Shown here piece after piece: positions 1 to 58,764 of a DNA stretch of 64,000 nt. The position numbers and the translations under genes are program-made. Below the pieces are notes generated by a model. The model was not told the origin of the DNA and did not search any database. It saw only the letters and a program-made list of their open reading frames with translations. Position 1 is the first letter of the stretch. Each line of letters begins with the position of its first letter. The DNA comes from a virus (lineage: Duplodnaviria > Caudoviricetes), in IMG/VR virus record IMGVR_UViG_3300032050_000002; one strand, 5' to 3'.

Positions 1-2
1 AT

Positions 3-488
3 ATGACACTAGAACAACATTTTAAAAATTATACCAAAAATAATCCGAATAGTGAAATCACATTATTCGATTGGAAAGATTGGTTTGGAAATAGATTGAA
101 AATTAATAAAAAATATATGGAAAACACACAGACAAAAATTGATTTTTTAAAATCAAAGGGATGGAAAAATTTAACAAAACAAGGAAATTGGGTTGATACA
201 AACAAAGTATATACAATTCCTGACATCAAAGGAATTACATTAGAAGACGCTTACAACCACGTTAAGAACAACGAAGAAAAATATAGATTTGCAAAACCTG
301 TATTGTCAAAGGTTATCATAAAAGAGAATGGAAAAGAGATAACAGGAGAAGTGGTTCAGAAAGTTATCCAATGCACAATGGACGGAATAATGTTTTTACA
401 ATATGTAATTAAGTCTGAACAAGGGGTTCATATTAGAAACGAAAACGAATTTGAAGTTATTTTATCCCAAGAGTTAAATTACAATTAA
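3..488 (+). CDS. Hypothetical phage protein
   Basis: 161-aa ORF, no recognised motif. Confidence 0.6.
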   Translation: MTLEQHFKNYTKNNPNSEITLFDWKDWFGNRLKINKKYMENTQTKIDFLKSKGWKNLTKQGNWVDTNKVYTIPDIKGITLEDAYNHVKNNEEKYRFAKPVLSKVIIKENGKEITGEVVQKVIQCTMDGIMFLQYVIKSEQGVHIRNENEFEVILSQELNYN

Positions 489-506
489 TTTTATTATCTT
501 TGTATT

Positions 507-1778
507 GTGATTACAGAGAAACTAAAACAAATACCCAAATTTCCGGGTTGTTATCTATTCAAAGATGACAAAGACCAAATAATATATGTTGGGATGTCAA
601 AGTTCTTACCAAAGAGGGTGACATCCTATTTCCAAAAAAATCACGATAACGAAAAAACAAAGTATCTTGTTGAACAGATAACTGATGTTGACTTTGTTAT
701 TACTTCTTCTGAACAAGAGGCAATTCTAATGGAGGAAGAACTTATAAAGATATATAAACCAAAGTTTAATATCAAAGGTAAGGATGATAAATCAAGGAAA
801 TGGTCGATTTGTTTAACTGATGAAAGATATCCAAGACTTGAGATTGTTAGAAACAAAACTAATGATTCGCCAAGTCTTGACTTCACCAGTGGTTTTCTAT
901 GTAGAGAGGTGTTTAATCTTATTCACGATATTGTTGAACTAAGAACCTGTTCGTATGAATTATCTGAGAAAAACATTGAAGAAAGTAAAATCAAACCTTG
1001 TCTTGAATTACAAATGAAAAGGTGTTTAGGTCCTTGTAATGGTGATATAACAGAACTATTATACAAATCAAAGATACTAATTGTAAAACAAATCTTTGAA
1101 CTTAATATCGATTCTGTTAAAAAAGGTATGGTAAAAACAATGAAGTATTTTGCCGATACTATGGAATACGAGAAGGCAAATGATATTAAAGTTAGAATGG
1201 AATATCTTAAAACTCTTGAAACAAAGTTAGAAACAATTAGGATAAGAAAATCAAACAAAAAAGCATTTGAACTTAAAAAACTATTGGGGCTTAACTTTAT
1301 TCCAAATATCATTGAAGCGTTTGATAACTCACATAATCAGGGCGATTCTAATGTTGCTGCTTCAGTTAGGTTTGTAAACGGAATACCAAACAAAAGTGAT
1401 TATAGAAAATATAATATCAAAAGTTTTACCGGTGTAGATGACTACGCGTCCTTTGATGAGGTATTAACAAGAAGGTTTAAAAGATTAATTGAAGAGAAAG
1501 GACAACTACCAAACCTGGTATTAATTGATGGTGGAAAAGGACAACTAAATGTTGCAAAGAAAGTATTTGATGAACTTGGATTAACTGATAAGATTGATTT
1601 AATATCGGTGTCAAAAGATGACAATCATAAATCATCCATAATACATACAACAAATGGTAAAACTTATAGTATATTGAGTAATACTAATTATAGTTTGTTA
1701 GGAAAGGTTCAAGAAGAGGTTCACAGGTTTGCGATTAACTTCCACAGAAAAAAAGAAAGTAAAAAGATTTTTTTATGA
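507..1778 (+). CDS. uvrC: Excinuclease ABC subunit C-like (GIY-YIG + UVR + RNase H-like), no C-terminal HhH domain
   Basis: PGCYLF...IIYVGMSK (GIY-YIG), MEYEKA (UVR), EAFDNSH...DDYASF.EVL.RRF...LVLIDGGKGQL; ends at RFAINFHRKK, where UvrC normally continues into HhH. GTG start 4 nt after TATCTTTG. Confidence 0.9.
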   Translation: MITEKLKQIPKFPGCYLFKDDKDQIIYVGMSKFLPKRVTSYFQKNHDNEKTKYLVEQITDVDFVITSSEQEAILMEEELIKIYKPKFNIKGKDDKSRKWSICLTDERYPRLEIVRNKTNDSPSLDFTSGFLCREVFNLIHDIVELRTCSYELSEKNIEESKIKPCLELQMKRCLGPCNGDITELLYKSKILIVKQIFELNIDSVKKGMVKTMKYFADTMEYEKANDIKVRMEYLKTLETKLETIRIRKSNKKAFELKKLLGLNFIPNIIEAFDNSHNQGDSNVAASVRFVNGIPNKSDYRKYNIKSFTGVDDYASFDEVLTRRFKRLIEEKGQLPNLVLIDGGKGQLNVAKKVFDELGLTDKIDLISVSKDDNHKSSIIHTTNGKTYSILSNTNYSLLGKVQEEVHRFAINFHRKKESKKIFL

Positions 1779-1803
1779 GAAAATAATTTCGTATCTTTGT
1801 ATT

Positions 1804-2025
1804 ATGAAATCAATATATAAATACTACATATATTCCATAGTGGATATAGTTCAATTAATGGTCTTTTTAAAATTATCATATTTGAAATTTTTAAATGGAG
1901 AAACTGCAATGTTCTCGGTGTGGTTCATATTATTTGTTATGAATCTAAATGAGATGGTTACTAAAGGTAGAAACTTTAGAAAATACTACCCTTACTTTGA
2001 AGACAAATGGTTATACATATTCTAA
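1804..2025 (+). CDS. Small hydrophobic hypothetical protein (true start probably 1804)
   Basis: ATG 4 nt after TATCTTTG (1792-1799); hydrophobic. Confidence 0.55.
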   Translation: MKSIYKYYIYSIVDIVQLMVFLKLSYLKFLNGETAMFSVWFILFVMNLNEMVTKGRNFRKYYPYFEDKWLYIF

Positions 2026-2510
2026 ACAATGGAAAGAGAAATTGAATTTAAAGAAGTCTTTGAACAGATGTGCGAAACATTCAAAGAAATTGGGTATGTC
2101 AACGGAGACATATCTGATGTTGGAAACGAAATTGGTTTTGCCTTAGGAAAAGTATTACCAAACCTGACAGAAGAAGAGATGAAAGTATTCATATTTGGAA
2201 TTAAACACGGAATATCATTAACAAACGGAACACATTAACTATGGGAAAAATAATTTTAGAATTTGACAGTGTAGAAGAATCTCAAGACGCAAGGGTTGCG
2301 TTAGATGCGATGAAATGGAAAATGGCGATTTGGGATTTAGACCAAGAATTACGAAGTACGGTAAAGTATGAGAAATCTTTATTAAGTCACGATGGTAAGG
2401 CAACCGATGTTGAAATTGAGATTGCAGATAAACTGAGAGAAAAGATTAGAGAGATATTAGAAGGGTATCAACTCAATATTGAAATGTAAACATAAATAAA
2501 AAAAAGAAAA

Positions 2511-2960
2511 ATGAAAAAGTTAGTATTATTAGCGGGAGTTGTATCAACATTGTTATTAACAAGTTGTTCAGAGAATTATTCAAACGGTGAAAGAATTGGT
2601 GTTATCACACAATTCTCAGAAACAGGTTTGGTTTGGAAAAGTTGGGAATGTCACTTAAACACAACCCAAAGTGGGATGAATAGTTCAATACCTTTTGACG
2701 CATCAATTGATAACGATAATCCAAACGAAGAGGTGATTAAAACACTTGACTCGGCGGCTCAATATGGATGGAAGGTTAAACTTGTATACCACGAAGTAGC
2801 TGGTTTTAATTGGTTCGGTAACAGGGGTGAGACAAATCACTTTATCAATAAGGTTGAGGTATTGGAAAAAAACTTTGCCAACAATTTTACAAAAAATGAA
2901 CCAAAAGTTACAGGAAGAGTTATTGATACAATATACGTTGTGATTGATAGAACAAAATAA
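2511..2960 (+). CDS. Putative lipoprotein
   Basis: MKK + hydrophobic stretch + LLTSC lipobox. Confidence 0.7.
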   Translation: MKKLVLLAGVVSTLLLTSCSENYSNGERIGVITQFSETGLVWKSWECHLNTTQSGMNSSIPFDASIDNDNPNEEVIKTLDSAAQYGWKVKLVYHEVAGFNWFGNRGETNHFINKVEVLEKNFANNFTKNEPKVTGRVIDTIYVVIDRTK

Positions 2961-2961
2961 T

Positions 2962-2993
2962 TTTGGTAGATTCAAAATTAAATTGTATCTTTG
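2962..2993 (+). promoter_or_regulatory. Bacteroidota sigma70-type promoter TTTG-N20-TATCTTTG, ATG 4 nt downstream (2998)
   Basis: TTTG 2962-2965, TATCTTTG 2986-2993; matches the -33/-7 consensus. Confidence 0.85.
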
Positions 2994-2997
2994 TATT

Positions 2998-3402
2998 ATG
3001 AAAAATGAATTTATAACATATGAACAAGCGGTGGCTCTTAAAGAGTTAGGTTTTGATGAAAGATGTTTTGGACACTATAATCCAAATGGTGTATTCTTTT
3101 GGAAGATTCTATGTTCAGACGAAGACAATGACCATACATTATCAGTTAAAGATATTATGGAACACGTTGCTGACGGTTATGTTGAAGCACCGCTCTATCA
3201 ACAAGCATTGAAATTTTTAAGGTATAATAATAAATACAGATTTTATATAATACCTTGTAGTCAAAACAAAAAACATCTATTTGAAATAACATTACCTTCA
3301 AGTATTGTATATACGACCATAGATGAACATGCTTATGATACTTACGAAGAAGCTGAGAGAGATTTATTGGATAAATTAATTGAAATAATAAAAAACAAAT
3401 AA
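2998..3402 (+). CDS. Hypothetical phage protein (EFITYEQAVALKELGFDE type)
   Basis: Leaderless ATG at 2998 inside track ORF 2944..3402. Confidence 0.65.
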   Translation: MKNEFITYEQAVALKELGFDERCFGHYNPNGVFFWKILCSDEDNDHTLSVKDIMEHVADGYVEAPLYQQALKFLRYNNKYRFYIIPCSQNKKHLFEITLPSSIVYTTIDEHAYDTYEEAERDLLDKLIEIIKNK

Positions 3403-3728
3403 TATGAAACCAAAAATAGGTGATAAAATAATGGTTAAAACCAAACTTGATGGAGAAAAACTTTGTGAAATTGATTGGTTTGATGATAAAAAAATACATT
3501 TTAAGAATAAAAGTAATTTTGGCATGACTGTAAATTCTGATAGAGTTATATACACGAATAACTCTTTGAGAGGTGCTAATTTTATTTACACAAGTTTCAA
3601 CTAAAACAAATAAAAAATGTTTGATATACCAGAGCCACCAAATGGTAAAAATAATGGTCTTATTATGATAATTTGGTTTATTTTTGTGACATTGATTATC
3701 ACTATGTTTATCACATCATTAAATTAAA

Positions 3729-3760
3729 TTTGGCAGATTCAAAATAATTTCGTATCTTTG
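3729..3760 (+). promoter_or_regulatory. Bacteroidota-type promoter TTTG-N20-TATCTTTG
   Basis: TTTG 3729-3732, TATCTTTG 3753-3760, ATG 3765. Confidence 0.85.
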
Positions 3761-3764
3761 TATT

Positions 3765-4442
3765 ATGAAAATTTGGCACATATCCGACACACATACATTC
3801 CACGGGTTATTAACAATACCTGAAAACATCGATATGGTTATCCATAGTGGTGACGTTAGTAACCCCCAAAATCAGTATCTAAACAAACCTGAAGTTGAGA
3901 ACTTCATCTATTGGTTCAGTAAGTTACCTATCAAATATAAAGTGTTTGTTGCGGGTAATCACGATACATCTATTGAAAAGAAACTAATAAACAAGATGGA
4001 TTTCGAGTCCAACGGTATTACCTATTTGGAAAATGATTTTGTTGAGATAGAAGGTCTTAAAATTTGGGGTTCACCAATAACTCCAACATTTGGAACAGGT
4101 TGGGCATTTAACAAAAATCGGGCAAAGACTCACGAAGTTTGGGCAAAGATTCCTGATGGAACTGACATTGTTGTTACTCACGGTCCTCCAAAAGGTGTGT
4201 TGGATTTATCTTATGATAGACTGAATCAATTGGAATTTTGTGGTGATAATTCTTTAAAAAAGAAAATGTTATCTTTAAATCCAAAGTTAGTTTGTTTCGG
4301 ACACATCCATAACTGTGAAGATATTATAAACGCTGGAACAATGAAACTATCTGTAAGTGATACCATATATAGTAATGGTAGTGTTGTTACCGATGGTAAG
4401 TTTGGTAAGTTAAGTAGTAATGGTAATGTATTTGAGATATGA
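3765..4442 (+). CDS. Calcineurin-like metallophosphoesterase
   Basis: HISDTH, HSGD, AGNHD, VTHGPP, FGHIH motifs. Confidence 0.9.
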   Translation: MKIWHISDTHTFHGLLTIPENIDMVIHSGDVSNPQNQYLNKPEVENFIYWFSKLPIKYKVFVAGNHDTSIEKKLINKMDFESNGITYLENDFVEIEGLKIWGSPITPTFGTGWAFNKNRAKTHEVWAKIPDGTDIVVTHGPPKGVLDLSYDRLNQLEFCGDNSLKKKMLSLNPKLVCFGHIHNCEDIINAGTMKLSVSDTIYSNGSVVTDGKFGKLSSNGNVFEI

Positions 4443-4857
4443 AATACAAAGATAAAACAAGAAAATATGAACTACAATAACATTATTATTGATTTCTTTA
4501 CTGGAATGAGAGGAATTCATGATTTATTTGAATCTATATATGAAGGATTATATGGTGGTGTTCAACGATATAAGGTAGAACCAAATGAAGGTATCTTTGA
4601 TAAAGATTTCTTAATAAAATTTATTAAGATAAATCAAGGTAATAATGATTTTGATTATGAACTTGGTAGAATTGGTTATAGATTTCTAACTTCAAATGAA
4701 GGGTTAAAAGAATTATCAAAATTCTACTTGAACGAGTTAAAAACATATAAACATGAATATGTATCAACTGAAGTTATTGAAAATTGTAAGAAATCGTTAA
4801 TTAATATAATAAACACATAATTTTAATTTTTTAAGAAGGGTGGTAAATTTTTATTGT

Positions 4858-4911
4858 ATATAACGTCTGATGATAAACAATCGTTTTAATGTTGTTTATC
4901 ATTTGTTATAT
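4858..4911 (+). mobile_element. attC-like site A
   Basis: ATATAAC-gtctg-ATGATAAACAA-loop-TTGTTTATCAT-tt-GTTATAT; 48 bp near-identical to site D. Confidence 0.75.
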
Positions 4912-4935
4912 GAATGTAAATTAAAATTTGAAAAT

Positions 4936-5205
4936 ATGAGTAATATAGGTAGAATAATAAAAAATGGCTATTGTAATGGTTTCTTTGGGCGAGATTATGA
5001 TTTTCATAATTCTGTAATCATTGCTGAGGGAGATGAATACATTGTTATTAGAAAAGAAAATGGTATTGTTGAATTTGGTAATCTTCAATCTTGGGACTGG
5101 AATAGAAATGATGATGGAACTTTATCATATGGGATTTCTAATTTACAATGTATGAGTAGAGAAAAGAAACAAGAACTAATTGATAGTTGGTGTGGAGAAT
5201 TTTAA
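4936..5205 (+). CDS. Cassette 1 ORF, hypothetical (frame also open from ATG 4870 inside attC A)
   Basis: Cassette ends GTTATATGAA (4905-4914) and TTCATATAAC (5211-5220) are exact reverse complements. Confidence 0.65.
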   Translation: MSNIGRIIKNGYCNGFFGRDYDFHNSVIIAEGDEYIVIRKENGIVEFGNLQSWDWNRNDDGTLSYGISNLQCMSREKKQELIDSWCGEF

Positions 5206-5213
5206 TTTATTTC

Positions 5214-5308
5214 ATATAACGTTTTGCGTATATGCGAGGTACGCCAAACAATAAACTTAAATATTTGTAAACCGCTTCGTGGCGTATCTTGCATATACGC
5301 TGTTAGGC
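5214..5308 (+). mobile_element. attC-like site B
   Basis: TAAC-gtttt-GCGTATATGCGAGGTACGCCA...TGGCGTATCTTGCATATACGC-t-GTTAGGC imperfect palindrome. Confidence 0.75.
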
Positions 5309-5323
5309 ACAGTTGTTTTAATT

Positions 5324-5533
5324 ATGACAAAATTCGATAACGGTTTTATTCTTTCAACCGATGAACTGAAAGAATTGCTTGAAAAAGCGTTTAGTAATGG
5401 TGCTTTATCTCACGCTAAATGGGATGGACAAAGAGATACTTGTTGGTCAAATGTTAATGAAGATATGAAAGAAGAAGTTTCAGTAATTCTTTCTGACCTT
5501 AACAGTAAGGTGGTCACTAACAATTGTGCCTAA
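5324..5533 (+). CDS. Cassette 2 ORF, hypothetical
   Basis: Stop TAA overlaps R'' (gccTAAc); ends GTTAGGCACAGTTG / CAATTGTGCCTAAC are 13/14 complementary. Confidence 0.65.
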   Translation: MTKFDNGFILSTDELKELLEKAFSNGALSHAKWDGQRDTCWSNVNEDMKEEVSVILSDLNSKVVTNNCA

Positions 5534-5668
5534 CTATTACAGATATATTTAGGTTTTCTGATATTTATATATAAAATAAAATTATGAGCAAAGAAATGAG
5601 AAAATACATAGACACTTTCAAACAGAGACTAACTGAATCAGAAAACTTGAATATATCTGATGTTAGTG
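5528..5668 (+). mobile_element. attC-like site C with TATTTAT motif, ATG and leader peptide inside its loop
   Basis: Arms CAGATATATTTAGGTTTTCTGAT (5540-5562) / ATCAGAAAACTTGAATATATCTG (5637-5659), flanked by CCTAAC and GTTAGTG. Confidence 0.75.
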
Positions 5669-5871
5669 ATAGTAATCAATTCAAAGTAGGGGATAAAGTT
5701 ATAAAAAACGAAGAAACTTGGGAACCAAATGATTTTGATAGTTGGGGAAGAGGAATTGGTGTGGGAATTATAGTTGAGCCTCCTTTTGAAATGGATGAAG
5801 GTGAAGTTGATGTAAGATGGCCTAATGGTAGAAGTTTTGAATTCACACACCAATTACGAAAGGTGAATTGA
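5584..5871 (+). CDS. Fusion ORF: attC-encoded leader (aa 1-26) + cassette 3 domain
   Basis: Codon 27 is the GTT recombination triplet (5662); cassette ends 5662-5682 / 5865-5885 are 20/21 complementary. Confidence 0.7.
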   Translation: MSKEMRKYIDTFKQRLTESENLNISDVSDSNQFKVGDKVIKNEETWEPNDFDSWGRGIGVGIIVEPPFEMDEGEVDVRWPNGRSFEFTHQLRKVN

Positions 5872-5878
5872 TTATTAT

Positions 5879-5932
5879 CACTAACGTCCGATGATAAACA
5901 ATCGTTTTAATGTTGTTTATCATTTGTTAGGT
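5879..5932 (+). mobile_element. attC-like site D
   Basis: CACTAAC-gtccg-ATGATAAACAA...TTGTTTATCAT-tt-GTTAGGT; copy of site A. Confidence 0.75.
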
Positions 5933-5990
5933 TTAGTTAAATTATTGTTTTACGAATGAAAAAAACAGATTATTACGAAATTTATATTTA

Positions 5991-6020
5991 AAACCTGAAA
6001 TAATTTTTCAGGTTTTTTTT
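5991..6020 (+). terminator. Intrinsic terminator closing the cassette region
   Basis: AAACCTGAAA-loop-TTTCAGGTTT + T run. Confidence 0.75.
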
Positions 6021-6053
6021 GTTTAATTCAAATTAATTTTGTATCTTTGTATT

Positions 6054-6698
6054 ATGGAAACCGATAAAAAGACATATAATAAAGAGATTGATGAGGCGGT
6101 TGAACGTGTTAACAACGGTCAGTTTGTATCAAATGAAGAAGTTATGAAAGAGATTGATGAATTGTTTGTTAAACCGGTAATCTTCCTCGACCACGATGGT
6201 GTCATCTGCCTTTCAACGGAATGGGGTTCTCGTTTCAAAAATAAAGAAGGATTGGACTCTGTATTTGACCGATTTAATGATAAAGCGATTAAGGTATTAA
6301 ATCAGATTATTGAAGAAACAGATTGTGAAATTGTTATTAGTTCGGATTGGCGTTTTCACGCACCATTAGAACAGATGCAAGAACTTTATCGTATTCGTGG
6401 AGTTAAGAAAGTTCCGATTGATTATACCACAACTGGTTTAGATTGGAAACAATTTATGACTATAACACCAAATAATGAACTTGAAGCAACACGTAGTTTT
6501 GAGATTTTAAATTGGTTGGAGGCACATCCCGATGTTACAAAGTGGGTTGCGGTTGATGATTTGAATATGAAGGAACAATACGGTGGTATCGATGGAAACT
6601 ATAAATATGGTTTAACAAACTTTGTTCATACTCCCCGTTCAAAAGAAGGTATTAAACAATCAGGAGTCAAAGAAAAGATAATTAAGTTTTTAAAATAA
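6054..6698 (+). CDS. HAD-superfamily protein (phage RNA-repair/Swiss-Army-knife HAD type)
   Basis: IFLDHDGV, IVISSDWR, WVAVDDL; leaderless ATG 6054 after TTTG(6018)-N20-TATCTTTG(6042). Confidence 0.75.
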   Translation: METDKKTYNKEIDEAVERVNNGQFVSNEEVMKEIDELFVKPVIFLDHDGVICLSTEWGSRFKNKEGLDSVFDRFNDKAIKVLNQIIEETDCEIVISSDWRFHAPLEQMQELYRIRGVKKVPIDYTTTGLDWKQFMTITPNNELEATRSFEILNWLEAHPDVTKWVAVDDLNMKEQYGGIDGNYKYGLTNFVHTPRSKEGIKQSGVKEKIIKFLK

Positions 6699-6967: not shown

Positions 6968-7182
6968 CAATGAGTAAGAGATACTCATTGGTCTTTGGTC
7001 AATAGATGGTTAAACAGGACTCGCTAAAATCTGGACAGCGAAAATGCCAGTTCGTAGGGCTCAAGGCGGCAATCACACCCTCTCCTACGTTGTGTGACTT
7101 TTTTAATAGGGGATGCCCTGTAGGTTTCATCAATAGGAAAAAACCGAAATAACTACTCACCGAATCTCAAGTGGGGAAATAT

Positions 7183-7308
7183 AGTCAGGTGGCGGAATTG
7201 GTAGACGCTAGAGCTGGAGTTAGGTCACACGCATTTGGGTTCGAGTCCCGTTAGTTGGGCCAGCTAGGAGAGCCGTAGACCGTGTGGGTTCAAATCCCAC
7301 CCTGACTA
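7183..7308 (+). ncRNA. tRNA-like RNA 2 (126 nt), Leu-type D arm, internal second T-loop hairpin
   Basis: AGTCAGG TG GCGGAATTGGTAGACGC ... GTGGG-TTCAAAT-CCCAC CCTGACT A. Confidence 0.7.
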
Positions 7309-7415
7309 CTGAATCAGTTTGTCCGTGGGAACGACTTGAAAGAGTCACTGTAATCAAAATCCAATCACTGTCTCACTGGTGTATTGGGCTAAATGTGAGG
7401 AAAAAACGGTCATAT

Positions 7416-7514
7416 AGTCAGGTGGTGTATATGGTAACACCCTTCATTGTAAGGATAAACAAGGTTGATTGTTTATCTGGAAGGACGAAGTCGGTTCGAA
7501 CCCGACCCTGATTA
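7416..7514 (+). ncRNA. tRNA-like RNA 3 (99 nt), hairpin inserted 3' of a possible anticodon (UGU or GUA, ambiguous)
   Basis: AGTCAGG/CCTGATT, D stem GTGT/ACAC, CCTTC/GAAGG stem, T-arm GTCGG-TTCGAAC-CCGAC. Confidence 0.7.
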
Positions 7515-7591
7515 CACTTGGTTTCGGTAGAGTTCCAGAAAGCATAGACTGAACAAAAAACAATCTACCTCGTTGACATAGAAGTGTCGTT

Positions 7592-7908: not shown

Positions 7909-8033
7909 CAATATGATAACAACAATATTAGTATACATTGGGTTTATCCTTTGGTTTTGGGCGGGATATAATGTGGGAAAAAATAACCGAAGATAAATTT
8001 GGTAAATTAAAAATAATTTCGTATCTTTGTATT

Positions 8034-49205: not shown

Positions 49206-49615
49206 AAATAGAAATACCTTTATATGATATTAAAATTAAATTTTACTTTGACTATGATTTAGGTAAACCCATTAAAAAGATAAAGAAAAAACATAATAAG
49301 AAAAAACTTTATAATGTAAGAAGTAAAATTGATTTTTGTGGAATTGTTATTGGTGAGTTTATACCAAAGGATAAGTTAATTTATGTTTTAATAGAAAAAA
49401 CTAAAAAGGGTATTAATATAGATACATTAACTCACGAAATATATCATTTAACAACCAAAATAATGAAACACAATAACTTCAAGTTTAATAAAACAGATGA
49501 ACCTTTTGCGAGATTAAATGGGAAGTTAAATTCAATTATTATGTGTGAATTAATTAAACATGGTGAGAAGTTATATTACCCAATTGAAACTAAAAAGATA
49601 AAAATAAAATGGTAA
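49202..49615 (+). CDS. HExxH-containing hypothetical protein
   Basis: LTHEIYHLT...DEPFA. Confidence 0.5.
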   Translation: MKIEIPLYDIKIKFYFDYDLGKPIKKIKKKHNKKKLYNVRSKIDFCGIVIGEFIPKDKLIYVLIEKTKKGINIDTLTHEIYHLTTKIMKHNNFKFNKTDEPFARLNGKLNSIIMCELIKHGEKLYYPIETKKIKIKW

Positions 49616-53196: not shown

Positions 53197-56100
53197 TTAA
53201 TCTATTTTAGAAAAAAGTGTTGTTAAATACTTTTTATTCTCATCATATATTGTTATTTGGTAGAAACCCGTATTCAAAAATCTTAAATCAACTTCATCTT
53301 CAGAATTTATATTTTTAGTTAAATAAACTTTACCTAATATATCTGAAACAACTAAATTAAATTTCTCACTTTCATTATGAAATATTCTTATTTGTAATAA
53401 ACCATTACCCGGATTCGGAAATACTATAAATTCAAAATCTTTATTATCTATTTCACCAAAACCAACTGTTTTTGATGTATTACAAACTTTAGTAACTCCA
53501 AAATAAGCCATTGGACTTGAACCACAAGTATTAACACCCATCACACTAAATGTACCACCCATAAAAGATGAGCTTGTTTTAGCCATAACACTATTTCCTG
53601 TTGTTGAACCAATAAATTGAGTTCCGTTAGAGTTATTCCAAATATAACTTGTAATTCTTGGAGATGTTGATGCAACTAATCTAATTGTATCAGGAAAACA
53701 AACCGATGAAGTTCCTGTAACAGTGGGTCTAACAGTCAATAAACCAACTTTCTTTTTACTTAATACACTACCACAAGCAAATTGTGTCGCTAATCTTATA
53801 CTATCACAAGAATTATTAATACAAGATGTGGATTCAAAATTACTTGGGAAAAATACGTCTATAGAGTTCGTTCCTTGACCTCTCACTATTTGAGCATTTC
53901 CTGGTACAGTCCAATTAAACGATAACGCTCCTGTTGTAGATACACTATACGTGTTAGTAAACCCATTATCAACACAATTAACACCACTTATACTAACACT
54001 TGGTAAACCCAAATCAACGGTTCTAATTCTTGTTATAGGATTTCCACATCCACCCGTAATTACAACTTGAATGTTTCCACCTGTAAAACCATTTTGGAAT
54101 GTTACATTAATTGAATTAGTTCCCTGACCACTAATTATTGTTGAGTTAGCAGGTACAGTCCACAAATAGTTAACTCCACTTATTGGACTAACACTAAACG
54201 TTGCAGGAGTGTTAGTTCCTACTAAACTACAAACACTTCTTACACCTGAAATTGCTGAAGCGGAAATTGTTGATGTTGTTGTTGATAGTGTTCTATTTGA
54301 AGATATACTTCCTCCACAACCATTGTTTAAGTTAACACTAATTGTTCCTGAACTAAATGAGTTAGATACTAATACATTTATTGAATTAGTTCCTTGACCC
54401 GATTGTATTGTCATATTAGTAGGAACAGTCCAAGTAAATGTTCCACTTTGATTTGTAACACTATAAGTAACTGATTGACCTAAGTACGGACACAAATCGC
54501 CAGGGCCTGTTATAGTTCCTATATTAGCGTAAAGATTATTATTAGATACAGTTCCATAAGTCATAGGTGATGAACCACATTTGTTAACTGACATCACACT
54601 AAATTGACCTGAAGTAAAGTTTGTACTAAATTTTACTTTAAGTGTGTCATTACTACTTGAACCTATTATACTAACACCATTAGGTACATTCCAAATATAC
54701 ATAAACGATGTAGGTACAGAATCGACTCTATAAGTGTAAATTGTATTACCATCAGCACAAACTGTTGTAGGTCCTAAGATAGACGTAGGTCTAACAACTA
54801 ATCTATCAATCGTAAATTGAGTTGTACTACTTCCACAAGAATTTGTTGCAGTAACTGAACCACCTGAACCACTTACCAACATTATTGACACTTTAAATTG
54901 TACAGTATCGTTACCTTGTCCACTATATATATTAACTCCATAAGGTACAACCCAATTATAAGTCATATTTGGTTGTGAATTTGTTACAATGTATGATTTA
55001 ATACTACCTGTAGGTTCACCACAGAAACTACCTGATACGATTGGTTTATTAGGTAATTTAGTAACCCAAATACTTCTATGATAAGTAATACCATTAGAAA
55101 CAACATCAACTTCAATACTATCTTGAACGAACCCTGAAGAAAAATTAACATTTATTGTTGGGTTACTTAATCCATTAGTTGATGTTATACCATTAGGTAA
55201 AATCCAAGTAATACTTTCAGGACTTGCGTTAGAATAATCAATGGTATATGAACCAGAACTAAGACCACATATTGAAGTGGGACCTTCTATTTGACCAACA
55301 TTAATAATTGCTGACGTACAACCCAAAGTCATTGGAGAAACTGATTGACAACCTTTAGAATCCGTAACAGTTAATGTGTAATTACCTGACGCGACGCCCG
55401 TTAAATTTTGTGTTGTTTGACCATTTGACCAACTGTATGTAAAAGGAGGAGTTCCACCAATAACACTACTACTTACAACACCATTATTTGAACCACAATT
55501 AGGGTAAGTTGTTATATCTAATGATATACTAATTTCTGATGGTTGAGAAATATTAATATATGTAATTTTTGTACAACCTTTATTATCTGTAACAGTAATT
55601 TGATAATTACCTGATGTTAAATTAGAAATACTACTTTGAGTATTTCCTGTATTCCACATATAAAGATAAGGTAGAGTTCCTCCTGACGCAGTAACCGAAG
55701 CGCTACCATTATTACCACCATAACAATTCACATTTGTCGTTGTTACAATTGTTGTTAGTTGAGTTGGTTGAGTTATTGTAACCGTTCTTGTCGTCTGACA
55801 CCCCTTTGAATCCGTAACTGTTACACTATAAGTGTTTGCCACAAGTGAGAAAATATCTTCTGTTGTTTGACCATTACTCCATAAGTAAGTATAAGGTGAT
55901 GTTCCTCCTGATGGAGTTAAGTTTATACTACCGCCAGGTTGTCCAAAACAACTTGGGTTAAAACTAGTTGATGTTGAGGCAAGTAACGTAGGTTGAGTAA
56001 TTGTGATTGATGTAGTTGATGTACAACCATAAAAATCTGTGACTGTAACTGAATAATCTCCTGATGTTAGGTTTGATATGTCCTCAGTAGTTCCACCATT

Positions 56101-58764
56101 AGACCAATTAAAATTAAAAGGTGAATTACCTAACGGAGTTAAATCTATACTACCATTATTACCACCATTACAACTAACATTAACACTTGTTGTTGATAAT
56201 ATAGAAGGAAATCTAACAGTCCAAGAAGTTAATACATCATAAGCATTGTTAGAACATCCAATACCTGTAGAACAATCACCTCTGCGACCTCTTATTTGAA
56301 CTACACTTCCGGCGGTTAGTGATGTTGTAGATATTAAAGTTCCTGGAGTATAACTTTGCCAAGATGTACCATTAATAGTGTATTGAAATATATCTGAACA
56401 GTTTATACCATTACTACCCGAATTGAATGTCGCTGATACATCACTACCAACACAAACATTGTTTGAGTTGGGTGTTTTAGTATTTAAAGTTGGATTAATT
56501 GGGTCAGGAATTACATTAACGGTATGAACGGGTGAGGTTCCTACACACCCTTTAGAATCTGTAACTACTACTCTATAATCTCTTGTTGATGTAGGTGTTG
56601 CGTTTATTGTTGTGGTTGTAACACTGTTTTGCCAAGTAGAGTTAAAAAATTGCCATTGATAAAAATAAGTTGGAAATCCCGATGTTACAGTTGAAGTTAT
56701 ATTATTAGTTCCCGAACCTCCAGCACATATCTGACTTGTGTAAGTGTTTAAGGTGACAGATGGGTTTGTTGCGGTAGTTAACGACACAGTATTTGAATTA
56801 ACAGATTGATTACAAGTATTTGTAATACTAACATAATAATTTCCTAATGTTGATGTAGAATAAGTCGATGAGTTAGCCCCTGATATTGGATTGTTATTTA
56901 AAAACCATTGATAAGTAAAAGGTTGTCTAACTCCTGATGCGGTAACTGAAAAAGTTACTTGTGATGTACAAGTTGTTTCATTAATAGGTTGTGTAGTTAT
57001 TGTTGGCGGTGAAGAAGTGTAATTAACTGATAATTGAAATGTTCCTCTTGCATTACTATAACCTGTAACCATCACATAATATTCTGTTAAATCTGTTGTT
57101 GCAAATGTAACTTCAGAACGAGTACTACAAAAATCATCACTATAGGTTAAACAAGTAAGTGCTCCACAAGTTCCTGTATATACAAATAATTTAGTATCAA
57201 AAGAAGTTCCTGTACATAAACTTAATGTTACATTTTGTCCGTTACCAATAACCTTATACCAAACCCCTGGTGCAGTCCAAGTCTCAGAGCCACCGTTATA
57301 ACAACTTGGTGAATCACCTGTTTGAGTCGCATTTTGAGTACTACCATTGAAAGTTGTATTACAAGAGGTGATAATCGCTCCTGAACATTCATCATTTGAA
57401 GGTGGTGGAATTGTACACTGAACACTTCTTGTTCTTATTGTTACTGATTCTCCACATGAGTTATTTGTATGAGTATAAAATCTCACAGTTTCGTTTGAAC
57501 TTGGTGTATAAACAACTGGTGTTGTCCCGTAAACTAAAACTGTTGTTCCTCCATTATTACTAATAGTTATAAAATCTGTTAACACCGAACTTCTAAATGT
57601 ATATTGAATTCCTCCTGTTAAACTAACCACTGAGTATTCACCCGCGTAACCACCTGTTGTAATATTTTCTTGAGTTCCTGAACAAGTTGGTGTGTATGTT
57701 GATGTCGGCCATTGACCATTTGAAGCGGTTAGACATCCAGGACCTGAAGTTGTAAATGTCCATACCGAACATCCTATAGCATTACCTGCAGAATTCTTTG
57801 GGATTATTTGCCAATAATATTGTGTGTTATAACTTAATGTTGATGGAGTATATGTTGTTCCAACTTGGTTAACAACAAAAGGTGGAGACGAATTTGACCC
57901 AAAATAAACATCATAACTTGTTGCACCAGATACCGCTCCCCAAGTTAAAGTAGGTCCTATAAATACACCCGTTTGATTATTTGTTGGCGATGTTAAAGTT
58001 GCACAAATAGGAACCGCTTGATAAGTTAATATAACTCTACCCGCAGCACCTCCACCACCAGCTCTACCTGTTGTATTATTTTTATACGCACCGCCACCTC
58101 CACCACCTGGAGATACACCTGACGAACCTGCTCCACCTGAAGAGTGACCACTACCACCATTACCTCCACCAGCAGGTGCGGTAGCTCCCGCAGTTCCCGT
58201 TGCATCAACACCGGCTAAAGTAGTTCCTGCTGATGAGCCCCCTCCTCCCGAAGTTACCCCACCAACTCTACCACTACCACCCCTACTTGATGTTCCTATA
58301 CACCCTGTTGTAGAACCAACTCCAGCAGTAGTTCCAACTGCACTTTGTCCGCCCTTAGCGACAACACCGTTAGTTGATACTGTAGGGGCAATGTTTGACA
58401 ATTTACTAACCCAAGTATCATTACCGTTAGATGCGTTACCTTGAACTCCAGCTCTTGCTGCTCCAACACTATAATAAATTGTTTGACCAGGTGTTACAGA
58501 TATTGTTGTTGTTGAACGAGAACCTCCCGCTCCGCCCGCAAATCCCCCTGTTCCTGATGTTGATTGTCCGGCACCAGCTCCACCACCACCCCAAGCATCA
58601 ATTTTAATTGAGTATACGTTAGCAGGGACAGTCCAAGTTCCTGATGATGTTCCAACATTTGCTCCTGAGGCGGGCATTGTTTGAGAAAAATTTTTAAGAT
58701 TACATAAAATAAAAATAGATAAGAATAGGGTCTTAAAAAATGATGATAAAGTAAGAGGTTTCAT
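53197..58764 (-). CDS. 1855-aa adhesin-like T9SS cargo (Gly-rich, FnIII, SprB repeats, PKD-like, T9SS CTD)
   Basis: Signal peptide; CNGGNNGSIDL...WSNG.TTEDI..L..G.YSVTVTD..GC repeats; C-terminal VFPNP...DILGK...L.TGFY. Confidence 0.85.
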   Translation of the reverse strand: MKPLTLSSFFKTLFLSIFILCNLKNFSQTMPASGANVGTSSGTWTVPANVYSIKIDAWGGGGAGAGQSTSGTGGFAGGAGGSRSTTTISVTPGQTIYYSVGAARAGVQGNASNGNDTWVSKLSNIAPTVSTNGVVAKGGQSAVGTTAGVGSTTGCIGTSSRGGSGRVGGVTSGGGGSSAGTTLAGVDATGTAGATAPAGGGNGGSGHSSGGAGSSGVSPGGGGGGAYKNNTTGRAGGGGAAGRVILTYQAVPICATLTSPTNNQTGVFIGPTLTWGAVSGATSYDVYFGSNSSPPFVVNQVGTTYTPSTLSYNTQYYWQIIPKNSAGNAIGCSVWTFTTSGPGCLTASNGQWPTSTYTPTCSGTQENITTGGYAGEYSVVSLTGGIQYTFRSSVLTDFITISNNGGTTVLVYGTTPVVYTPSSNETVRFYTHTNNSCGESVTIRTRSVQCTIPPPSNDECSGAIITSCNTTFNGSTQNATQTGDSPSCYNGGSETWTAPGVWYKVIGNGQNVTLSLCTGTSFDTKLFVYTGTCGALTCLTYSDDFCSTRSEVTFATTDLTEYYVMVTGYSNARGTFQLSVNYTSSPPTITTQPINETTCTSQVTFSVTASGVRQPFTYQWFLNNNPISGANSSTYSTSTLGNYYVSITNTCNQSVNSNTVSLTTATNPSVTLNTYTSQICAGGSGTNNITSTVTSGFPTYFYQWQFFNSTWQNSVTTTTINATPTSTRDYRVVVTDSKGCVGTSPVHTVNVIPDPINPTLNTKTPNSNNVCVGSDVSATFNSGSNGINCSDIFQYTINGTSWQSYTPGTLISTTSLTAGSVVQIRGRRGDCSTGIGCSNNAYDVLTSWTVRFPSILSTTSVNVSCNGGNNGSIDLTPLGNSPFNFNWSNGGTTEDISNLTSGDYSVTVTDFYGCTSTTSITITQPTLLASTSTSFNPSCFGQPGGSINLTPSGGTSPYTYLWSNGQTTEDIFSLVANTYSVTVTDSKGCQTTRTVTITQPTQLTTIVTTTNVNCYGGNNGSASVTASGGTLPYLYMWNTGNTQSSISNLTSGNYQITVTDNKGCTKITYINISQPSEISISLDITTYPNCGSNNGVVSSSVIGGTPPFTYSWSNGQTTQNLTGVASGNYTLTVTDSKGCQSVSPMTLGCTSAIINVGQIEGPTSICGLSSGSYTIDYSNASPESITWILPNGITSTNGLSNPTINVNFSSGFVQDSIEVDVVSNGITYHRSIWVTKLPNKPIVSGSFCGEPTGSIKSYIVTNSQPNMTYNWVVPYGVNIYSGQGNDTVQFKVSIMLVSGSGGSVTATNSCGSSTTQFTIDRLVVRPTSILGPTTVCADGNTIYTYRVDSVPTSFMYIWNVPNGVSIIGSSSNDTLKVKFSTNFTSGQFSVMSVNKCGSSPMTYGTVSNNNLYANIGTITGPGDLCPYLGQSVTYSVTNQSGTFTWTVPTNMTIQSGQGTNSINVLVSNSFSSGTISVNLNNGCGGSISSNRTLSTTTSTISASAISGVRSVCSLVGTNTPATFSVSPISGVNYLWTVPANSTIISGQGTNSINVTFQNGFTGGNIQVVITGGCGNPITRIRTVDLGLPSVSISGVNCVDNGFTNTYSVSTTGALSFNWTVPGNAQIVRGQGTNSIDVFFPSNFESTSCINNSCDSIRLATQFACGSVLSKKKVGLLTVRPTVTGTSSVCFPDTIRLVASTSPRITSYIWNNSNGTQFIGSTTGNSVMAKTSSSFMGGTFSVMGVNTCGSSPMAYFGVTKVCNTSKTVGFGEIDNKDFEFIVFPNPGNGLLQIRIFHNESEKFNLVVSDILGKVYLTKNINSEDEVDLRFLNTGFYQITIYDENKKYLTTLFSKID

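Follow-up and report, generated by a model that had tools for sequence, protein, structure and literature searches.

A 64,000-nucleotide (nt) stretch of a tailed phage genome (IMG/VR virus record IMGVR_UViG_3300032050_000002; Caudoviricetes), here called the window, contains at positions 4453-5955 a series of small gene cassettes that alternate with hairpin-forming sites. This region is probably a decayed, recombinase-less copy of a phage-borne, integron-like cassette platform. In intact relatives the order on the sense strand is co-oriented units, a primary site with a TAAC but without a hairpin, and the gene of an Xer-like recombinase. One unit consists of a hairpin site (TAAC, G, a 3-nt bulge, a stem-loop, T, GTTA) and one small gene, the two ends of which, GTTA-KnnnyAGT... 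and ...ATTRnnnM-TAAC, are complementary to each other. An integron-like cassette array had already been proposed in an original prediction, which was made from the letters of the window alone, and the proposal is supported by the cassette-end signature, which recurs in hundreds of cassettes of related phage contigs.

All four imperfect palindromes that had been described were present, with left spacers of 4-5 nt and right spacers of 1-2 nt. They are located on the plus strand, like all features described below for this locus, and each opens with TAAC and the left spacer, continues with two stem arms (12-23 bp) around a loop, and closes with the right spacer and GTTA. Hairpin 1 (hp1, 4861-4908) was detected by a structural scan and represents the commonest type, which is 48 nt long. 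The last one, hp4 (5882-5929; structural scan and sequence), belongs to the same type, and the two are nearly identical. The other two are hp2 (5217-5305), which has 89 nt and a 21-bp stem (-20.4 kcal/mol), and hp3 (5531-5665), which has 135 nt and a 23-bp stem; the loop of hp3 contains an AT-rich promoter-like block, a start codon at 5584, and a 27-codon leader. Folded as single-stranded DNA, the four hairpins had z-scores of -3.4 to -4.0 in comparison to shuffled sequences. No further site of this form was found in the 64-kb window, and a relaxed threshold added one weak match at 49449.

The ends of the segments between the hairpins are complementary, as had been claimed, and the pairings are a little longer than first given. 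In cassette 1 (4905-5220) the ends 4905-4914 and 5211-5220 pair at 10 of 10 positions (21 nt at 76%). The values are 15 of 16 for cassette 2 (5302-5534; ends 5302-5317 and 5519-5534) and 21 of 22 for cassette 3 (5662-5885; ends 5662-5683 and 5864-5885). The segment ends pair with one another, and not with the flanks of their own hairpin. Cassette 1 contains an open reading frame (ORF) of 89 amino acids (4936-5205) without a Pfam match. The ORF of cassette 2 (5324-5533, 69 amino acids) ends with a TAA that is at the same time the TAA of the TAAC of hp3, an overlap that had been noticed before. Cassette 3 carries the body of an ORF of 95 amino acids (5584-5871) that begins inside hp3, and there is no start codon within the cassette proper. 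The number of cassettes had been given as three and has to be corrected to four plus a truncated fifth. Cassette 0 (4453-4864) is 5'-truncated, contains the ORF 4467-4820 (117 amino acids, no family), and is 95% identical over 416 nt to a cassette of the related phage locus L048. It terminates in the left-flank consensus ATTGTATA-TAAC. Its counterpart in L048 sits between two hairpins, and the homology ends 4 nt past TAAC. Of the fifth cassette the 5' end (X region, 5926-5955) is left, which is of a common leader type (97.7% identity to positions 5702-5787 of the related locus L045), and its complementary partner downstream is absent. No family could be assigned to any of the four cassette proteins of the window. 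One further candidate end, GTTATATACA at 3545, pairs at 10 of 10 positions with the left flank of hp1, but was judged to be a chance match, because it has no adjoining hairpin and lies inside an ORF.

Chance palindromes in AT-rich DNA are next to inconceivable as an explanation. The genome of the window has a G+C content of only 29.8%, and a lone 10/10 pair is not significant, because about two are expected per window. The pair of cassette 1 is nevertheless significant because of its place in a series of adjacent pairs. A GTTA...TAAC-anchored score was determined for the window and for 30 dinucleotide-preserving shuffles of the whole 64-kb sequence. The maximum of the 30 shuffles was 13, whereas the window had scores of 10, 13, and 19, all of them for neighbouring sites, and thus two of the three equalled or exceeded the best shuffle. 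End complementarity of this kind is therefore not frequent in shuffled AT-rich sequence, which the original prediction had considered as a possible objection. In addition, the pattern is repeated hundreds of times, and chance is thereby already refuted.

The 34-nt core of hp1 and hp4 was found without mismatch in at least 119 stretches of IMG/VR contigs with sizes from 4 kb to 465 kb, and in all copies the conservation drops abruptly at TAAC on the left and at GTTA on the right. The structural scan of these loci revealed 434 sites, i.e., 130 of the hp1 type and 304 with other sequences, and their sizes cluster near 48, 80-90, and 115-135 nt. Sites within an array are co-oriented, and the maximum was 18 sites per array. 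Two whole contigs had sites only in one or two arrays, with about one false match per 60 kb elsewhere. Clustering at 80% identity reduced the 319 cassettes to 258 clusters and the hairpins to 117. In 260 unique pairs of consecutive hairpins, the right flank of the first was compared with the left flank of the second; the median score was 11, and 44% of the pairs had a score of at least 12. In contrast, the control pairings (own-flank, skip-one, reversed, and random) had a median of 5, and only 0-0.5% reached 12. A single genome can carry more than one array. Contig G001 (L129-L135) has a second array of 18 hairpins at 116229-122505, which lies 7.5 kb downstream of the recombinase gene and reaches the contig end.

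Among 185,579 prokaryotic species genomes the hp1 core had a single match, which lies on a metagenome-bin contig of 1.4 kb, and the distribution of the sequence indicates a phage-only system. It also bears on the idea that the array is a fragment of a bacterial integron, i.e., a canonical attC cluster without integrase that was taken from a host chromosome. Such clusters are known in a few phages, including a Polaribacter phage (PMC9892861), and the AAC...GTT core is common to attC sites. However, apart from the near absence of the core from prokaryotic genomes, the recombinase linked to the arrays is not IntI, and the spacer geometry, the folding strand, and the gene orientation are all unlike those of canonical attC sites. 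A bacterial origin of this type is very improbable.

The consensus of the sites is ATT-R-nnn-M-TAAC-G-(3-nt bulge)-stem...stem-T-GTTA-K-nnn-y-AGT. The TAAC and the GTTA are 100% invariant. TAAC is followed by G, and GTTA preceded by T, in 98% of the sites each, and these two bases form a G.T pair. A second fixed G.T is formed by the T at -7 (96%) and the opposite G at +10, about one helical turn away. The outer stem between these fixed points covaries freely, and all four Watson-Crick pair types occur; positions 4-8 past GTTA were paired in 89-94% of the 258 cassette clusters, compared to 40-61% with shuffled partners. The spacers seem to be unlike those of canonical attC sites, as the original prediction had stated; a G.T pair and a 3-nt bulge take the place of the central spacer.

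The distribution of mismatches shows a clear strand bias. G.T exceeded A.C by 207:4 in the cassette-end stems and by 224:23 in the hairpin stems. The scoring of stems somewhat favours wobbles, yet other mismatches (49 and 43) far outnumber A.C. As the complement would have A.C mismatches at these positions, the folding strand is, to judge from these counts, the sense strand. When the units of the window were closed into circles at TAAC, their ends and the hairpin became one continuous hairpin with -22 to -34 kcal/mol. The same sites reached only -11 to -21 kcal/mol in the array context, and thus the circle form was better by 8-14 kcal/mol. The top strand was more stable in every circle-form fold. 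Canonical attC sites have the boxes R'' (RYYYAAC) and R' (GTTRRRY), and their bottom strand is the recombinogenic one; the wobbles of the phage sites favour the top strand.

Folding of the sense strand could also serve a role at the RNA level, in which the paired untranslated ends and the hairpins would serve as RNase III-type signals by which a long transcript is processed or stabilised. All folds are on the sense strand, the wobbles with their ratio of 207:4 are compatible with G.U pairs, the paired ends are untranslated regions, and duplexes of 20-26 bp exist. However, a scan of positions 4400-6400 against Rfam 15 did not reveal any family (best results 17-21 bits, E >1), and core tetranucleotides that are 100% invariant would be unusual for a purely structural stem. 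Such a role also fails to explain how recombinase and primary site are arranged, why the breakpoints lie at the cores, and why circularising results in a continuous hairpin. In place of recombination an RNA-level role is quite improbable, but it could coexist with recombination of the DNA.

When whole contigs were searched, a tyrosine recombinase (PF00589, 120-129 bits) was present in three of five array-bearing contigs, and the other two contigs had a completeness of only 15% and 34%. By tblastn, the gene or a remnant was found in 25 hairpin-derived loci. It always has the orientation of the array and lies 140-950 nt (one last cassette) downstream of the array end. Beyond the recombinase gene no hairpins were detected in the available sequence of the 25 loci, which extends for several kb in the longer ones. 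The last cassette has its own X'-TAAC, which is complementary to the cassette start (score of at least 9 in 13 of 14 loci). This TAAC is not followed by a hairpin, but by a conserved block (T, A/G, n, n, TTATATA, often a second AAC), and a block of the TTATATA type was found 40-110 nt before the recombinase start codon in 12 of 13 aligned loci. By its position and its logic, the hairpin-less TAAC site would be the analogue of attI; there is no sequence similarity to known attI sites. An independent test set of four recombinase homologues on long contigs was chosen by protein search to avoid the bias of a discovery based on hp1. In all four contigs hairpins directly preceded the recombinase gene (5, 11, 1, and 8), and the 10 kb behind the gene contained none on that strand. 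Two of the four were without any hp1 copy, and three had the TAAC-TTATATA-type block.

The original prediction had suggested that a different or a host tyrosine recombinase may act on the sites. The enzyme is indeed Xer-like and not IntI, but it is encoded by the phages and not by the host. It has a length of 265-276 amino acids, and its closest solved structure is the Pyrococcus XerA (4a8e), with a continuous alignment of 133 bits. VchIntIA (2a3v) aligned in two pieces, and the 77 residues that IntI has in the region of its integron-specific domain are reduced to 29 in the phage protein. The profile scores were 151-159 bits for TIGR02249 (cut-off 265), 184-194 bits for NF040815, i.e., XerA (cut-off 220), and 125-129 bits for PF00589, and no curated cut-off of NCBIfam was reached. 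All 12 distinct copies that were compared have the catalytic residues R, K, HxxR, H, and Y. On these alignments the array-linked enzyme classifies as a two-domain Xer-type tyrosine recombinase, of which the window itself contains an 11-codon remnant alone. Recombinase lineages with the same array layout are down to 47% identical, and the family comprises 5,129 protein clusters at 90% identity in metagenomes, all of them automatically labelled XerD. The integrases of cultured Polaribacter (Freya) and Cellulophaga (Ingeline) phages are 37-40% identical to the array-linked recombinase. In Polaribacter phage Freya_10 (L146, positions 1-4147) ten small co-oriented hypothetical genes precede the 37%-identical integrase, but TAAC-hairpin-GTTA sites are absent, and the genome lengths of Freya isolates vary by up to 4.9 kb.

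In agreement with the original prediction, there is no recombinase gene in the 64 kb of the window, and a homologue was also absent from about 6 kb of extra flank from related contigs. However, a remnant of the gene is present directly behind the fifth cassette (5956-5991). It comprises 11 codons (MKKTDYYEIYI) and a stop codon; 25 of 28 nt (5956-5983) agree with the beginning of the L041 recombinase gene, and the recombinases of L001, L032, and L100 have N-termini that match the peptide. It is followed by a terminator-like hairpin and a run of eight T (5994-6020), read from the sequence, and by a conserved Bacteroidota-type promoter block (6018-6055), which forms the downstream flank of the locus. 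The conserved upstream flank is a gene for a calcineurin-like phosphoesterase (3765-4442; Pfam PF00149, E 2e-16), a homologue of which is located directly upstream of the array of L045. The L045 locus is syntenic, as it has the same two flanks, with identities of 74% for the phosphoesterase and 97% for the promoter block, which lies just past the L045 recombinase stop codon. In L045 these flanks enclose an array, in which four hairpins were detected, together with the primary site and a recombinase gene that is intact. The window and L045 have no cassette in common, but they share hairpin types and one leader. Because the remnant of the gene start is followed by the terminator and the promoter block, at a locus that is syntenic with the intact L045, the recombinase gene has evidently been deleted in the window phage. 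The array-linked gene is broken also elsewhere, namely by an internal deletion in L086, a split in L100, and a frameshift in L118. In L010, L026, L069, L072, and L088 it has been reduced to short remnants of the N or the C terminus. The frequency of decayed copies suggests that the enzyme has been lost repeatedly.

Signs of cassette movement were obtained from 13 cassette clusters that were found between differing neighbours. At the 3' side the homology stopped 3-7 nt past TAAC in 17 of 20 non-collinear comparisons. At the 5' side of the 20 comparisons the limit was GTTA in 5 cases, the 3' arm of the hairpin in 10, and the TAAC upstream of a shared hairpin in 4; in the remaining one, which was scored as collinear upstream, the homology ran a few nt beyond that upstream TAAC. 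Based on 150-nt flanks, the same downstream cassette was preceded by the same hairpin in 14 pairs and by different hairpins in 7, while the same upstream cassette was followed by the same hairpin in 5 pairs and by different ones in 13. Thus the hairpin seems to belong mostly to the gene behind it, the mirror image of an integron as it is commonly drawn, and exchange would occur mainly in TAAC, but also at GTTA. The crossover at G/TT of the original prediction is therefore right insofar as exchange at GTTA occurs, but TAAC on the 5' side of the hairpin is used at least as frequently. A hairpin is not strictly linked to one neighbour, and therefore one fixed crossover point cannot explain all cases; a strict single-crossover model, in which the hairpin always stays with one neighbour, was rejected on the linkage counts and the homology breakpoints. 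Exchange at both TAAC and GTTA could be due to cleavage on either arm, to occasional use of the other strand, or to additional homologous exchange in shared stems.

Homologous exchange is the basis of a further explanation, which was modelled on the promoter-stem-loop (PeSL) cassettes of T4-type phages. PeSLs are a promoter and a terminator that are repeated as sequence; they undergo homologous exchange and form mini-circles (PMC2839356, PMC4122927). Correspondingly, the hairpins would be regulatory punctuation that is shuffled by general homologous recombination, and the recombinase would do another job, e.g., dimer resolution. The hp1-type hairpins offer 46 nt of identity at many positions, the large loops have promoter-like blocks and start codons, the exchange points lie on either side of the hairpin and at times inside the 3' arm, and mini-circles are a known product of PeSL exchange (PMC2839356). 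Yet the covariation of the cassette ends is left unexplained, as are the common core, bulge, and wobble geometry of 117 unrelated hairpin clusters and the arrays that stop at a hairpin-less TAAC before the recombinase in lineages down to 47% identity. The combination that characterises PeSLs, i.e., a conserved sigma-70 early promoter plus a terminator stem-loop repeated as sequence, was not found; the hairpins are not followed by T-runs, and the 11-nt loop of hp1 has no promoter. A PeSL-like explanation is therefore unlikely, although less so than the RNA-level role.

The comparison of relatives for variation at the junctions, which the original prediction had proposed, had a mixed outcome. 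In the wider family cassettes were found in different contexts, as described above, but near-identical contigs are invariant at TAAC and GTTA. Six metagenome contigs with an identical phosphoesterase (L123-L128) have the same array with about 100% identity. The only differences are two deletions of the microhomology type, both of them off the cores. The deletion in L123 corresponds to window positions 4567-4786 and lies inside cassette 0, and that in L128 (4878-4968) has taken away one half of hp1 along with the beginning of the gene of cassette 1. The window phage is present in lake metagenomes of 16 studies. The contig depth over four lake runs had spikes of 1,268 and 2,171 at hp1 and hp4, and therefore this hairpin is common to many phages. 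The joints in the lake runs have sides of less than 35 nt and are unreliable, and the single run with raw reads had none on this region. One joint, from 5529 to 5881, omits exactly one TAAC-to-TAAC unit (351 nt), but one of its sides has only 24 nt. The lack of direct signs of circles or recent events at the locus of the window fits a platform without its enzyme.

The observations are best combined in an integron analogue that likely works on folded single-stranded DNA. We infer catalysis by the Xer-like recombinase, a single-stranded substrate, and a circular form of the unit. Circularisation at the TAAC core would fuse the ends and the hairpin into a single long hairpin. This circle-form site would fold in the sense strand when the DNA is single-stranded. 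The recombinase would then read the shape together with the TAAC/GTTA core, the bulge, and the pair of fixed G.T wobbles, which are spaced by about one helical turn. One strand would be exchanged within the core, either with the primary site, which would result in capture, or with another hairpin, which would result in excision or reshuffling. The primary site would be the duplex partner, and replication would finish the exchange, as for integron attC sites and for the integration of CTX phage by XerCD.

Several points weigh against this reading. The window has no recombinase of its own, and arrays were also found apart from a recombinase gene, like the second array of G001. The bias towards G.T is equally compatible with a function of RNA. 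The interiors of the hairpins are not strictly tied to one neighbour (14 versus 7 and 5 versus 13 pairs). An excised circle, an empty site, or a polymorphism at the level of cassettes was not directly seen in the short-read assemblies, which break at repeated hairpins, and the six contigs mentioned above did not show any variation at TAAC or GTTA. Last, the putative activity on hairpins would have to be exerted by an enzyme without the extra domain by which IntI handles folded attC sites. It was the I2 helix that oriented IntI towards single strands (PMC7790495), and the lack of this helix is the main biochemical doubt about an integron analogue.

A precedent is known for an enzyme of this family. 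In CTX phage, XerCD act on a hairpin that is folded from one strand and mimics a duplex site; a single exchange takes place, and replication completes the process. Therefore, an extra domain of the IntI type would not be required. The proposed system is alike in that an Xer-family enzyme would act on a folded single strand. In the CTX case, however, the whole phage genome is integrated into the host dif site by host enzymes, whereas here a phage enzyme would shift single genes within phage genomes.

Integrons share more features with the phage system. They also combine a tyrosine recombinase gene beside a primary site with an array of co-oriented single-gene cassettes, their sites are likewise imperfect palindromes that vary in sequence and in length (48-135 nt in the window) but have a conserved AAC...GTT core, the complementary cassette ends imply circular intermediates, and recombinase-less and decayed arrays exist as well. 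Along the folding strand of the standard model (PMC8946536), the 5' end of an integron unit is formed by the hairpin, which is cleaved in its AAC arm, and the 3' end of the array is adjoined by attI and the integrase gene, the latter in sense; the phage arrays match this geometry. As can be reasoned from the standard model (PMC8946536), a class 1 integron that is read on the bottom strand has the same order of hairpins, primary site, and recombinase (sense). In contrast, the recombinase of the phages is Xer-like (265 amino acids) and without the IntI-specific domain. The phage cargo is sense on the folding strand, its genes point to the recombinase, and the hairpin is 5' of the gene. Where integron sites have extrahelical bases and a central spacer that is unpaired, the phage sites have the 3-nt bulge and the fixed G.T wobbles, and the complementarity of the outer stem is 15-26 bp instead of 7. 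Furthermore, some phage hairpins provide a promoter, a start codon, and a leader peptide, and the system occurs in phages only. Because the IntI-specific domain is absent, the platform does not classify as a true integron.

With PeSLs the system has in common that small orphan genes of large lytic phages lie in hyperplastic regions, have repeated stem-loop flanks, and undergo modular shuffling, whereas PeSLs lack a dedicated recombinase, an invariant core, and complementary cassette ends. Clusters of attC sites lacking integrases (CALINs) have been described in virulent phages, some with DNA methyltransferases and without an adjoining integrase (PMC9892861). They resemble the state of the window array, i.e., a cluster of recombination sites without an integrase. 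They have canonical attC sites that are recognised by IntI1, usually two per phage, and were read as bacterial acquisitions (PMC9892861). Integron fragments or attC clusters and PeSLs in phages were found in the literature, but a recombinase-linked hairpin array was nowhere described. The platform would be a gene-capture device for which no description in viruses was found; it probably functions like an integron while it lacks the IntI that defines integrons.

A sense ORF is present in 249 of the 258 cassette clusters, with a median of 86 amino acids. Of the 113 cassette proteins that were scanned, about 104 had no match in Pfam; among the others are a Mom-like DNA-modification protein, a C5 cytosine methyltransferase, another methyltransferase, an Rv2179c-like exoribonuclease, YopX, and DUF3310, and nucleotide kinases were matched in PHROGs. 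The cargo thus seems to be mostly small orphan proteins, together with some anti-restriction enzymes. In 81 of the 249 clusters the ORF begins inside the loop of the upstream hairpin, as in the case of hp3 and ORF 5584-5871 of the window, and the hp3 type precedes different cassettes in L005, L045, and L118. The large loops have an AT-rich promoter-like block, an ATG, and a leader of 20-30 codons (of the MSKEMRKYIDTFK... type), which reads in frame through GTTA into any following cassette. Hairpins of this leader type were found at 5531-5665 in the window and at 5871-6009, 7011-7134, and 7236-7365 in L005.

A few observations concern the surroundings of the array. The Bacteroidota-type promoter block (TTTG ... 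TATCTTTG, with an ATG 5 nt on) recurs almost unchanged in the window at 2960-3000, 3728-3767, 6018-6057, and 7960-8000. It stands before several genes, which would result in near-leaderless transcripts. Between 6700 and 7900 the translations of minus-strand ORFs (VGFEPT, 7220-7357 and 7444-7563) resemble the T-arm of transfer RNAs (tRNAs) and suggest tRNA-like elements; ARAGORN did not detect any tRNA in the window. A very long ORF of 1,855 amino acids is located on the minus strand at 53197-58764.

Integrons have so far been regarded as a bacterial invention that is bound to one integrase family and its extra domain. If the proposed reading is true, a second, virus-encoded solution for gene capture exists, which is built on a plain Xer-like enzyme. 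Hairpin-based cassette capture would then have arisen more than once, and the phages would offer a natural way to test to what extent the IntI apparatus is needed. The several hundred compact cassettes would be anti-defence candidates, and Mom-like and C5-methyltransferase cassettes are already among them. The short sites and the small enzyme would also be attractive as a recombination tool. Taken together, we lean towards the view that large phages of freshwater Bacteroidota have evolved an IntI-independent integron, in which an Xer-like recombinase would capture, store, and reshuffle hundreds of single-gene cassettes via sense-strand hairpins, which can donate a promoter and a leader peptide. 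The arrays may be the phage counterpart of the defence-gene "biobanks" of bacterial integrons, stocked with counter-defence and accessory genes, and would explain the turnover of small orphan genes in large lytic phages.

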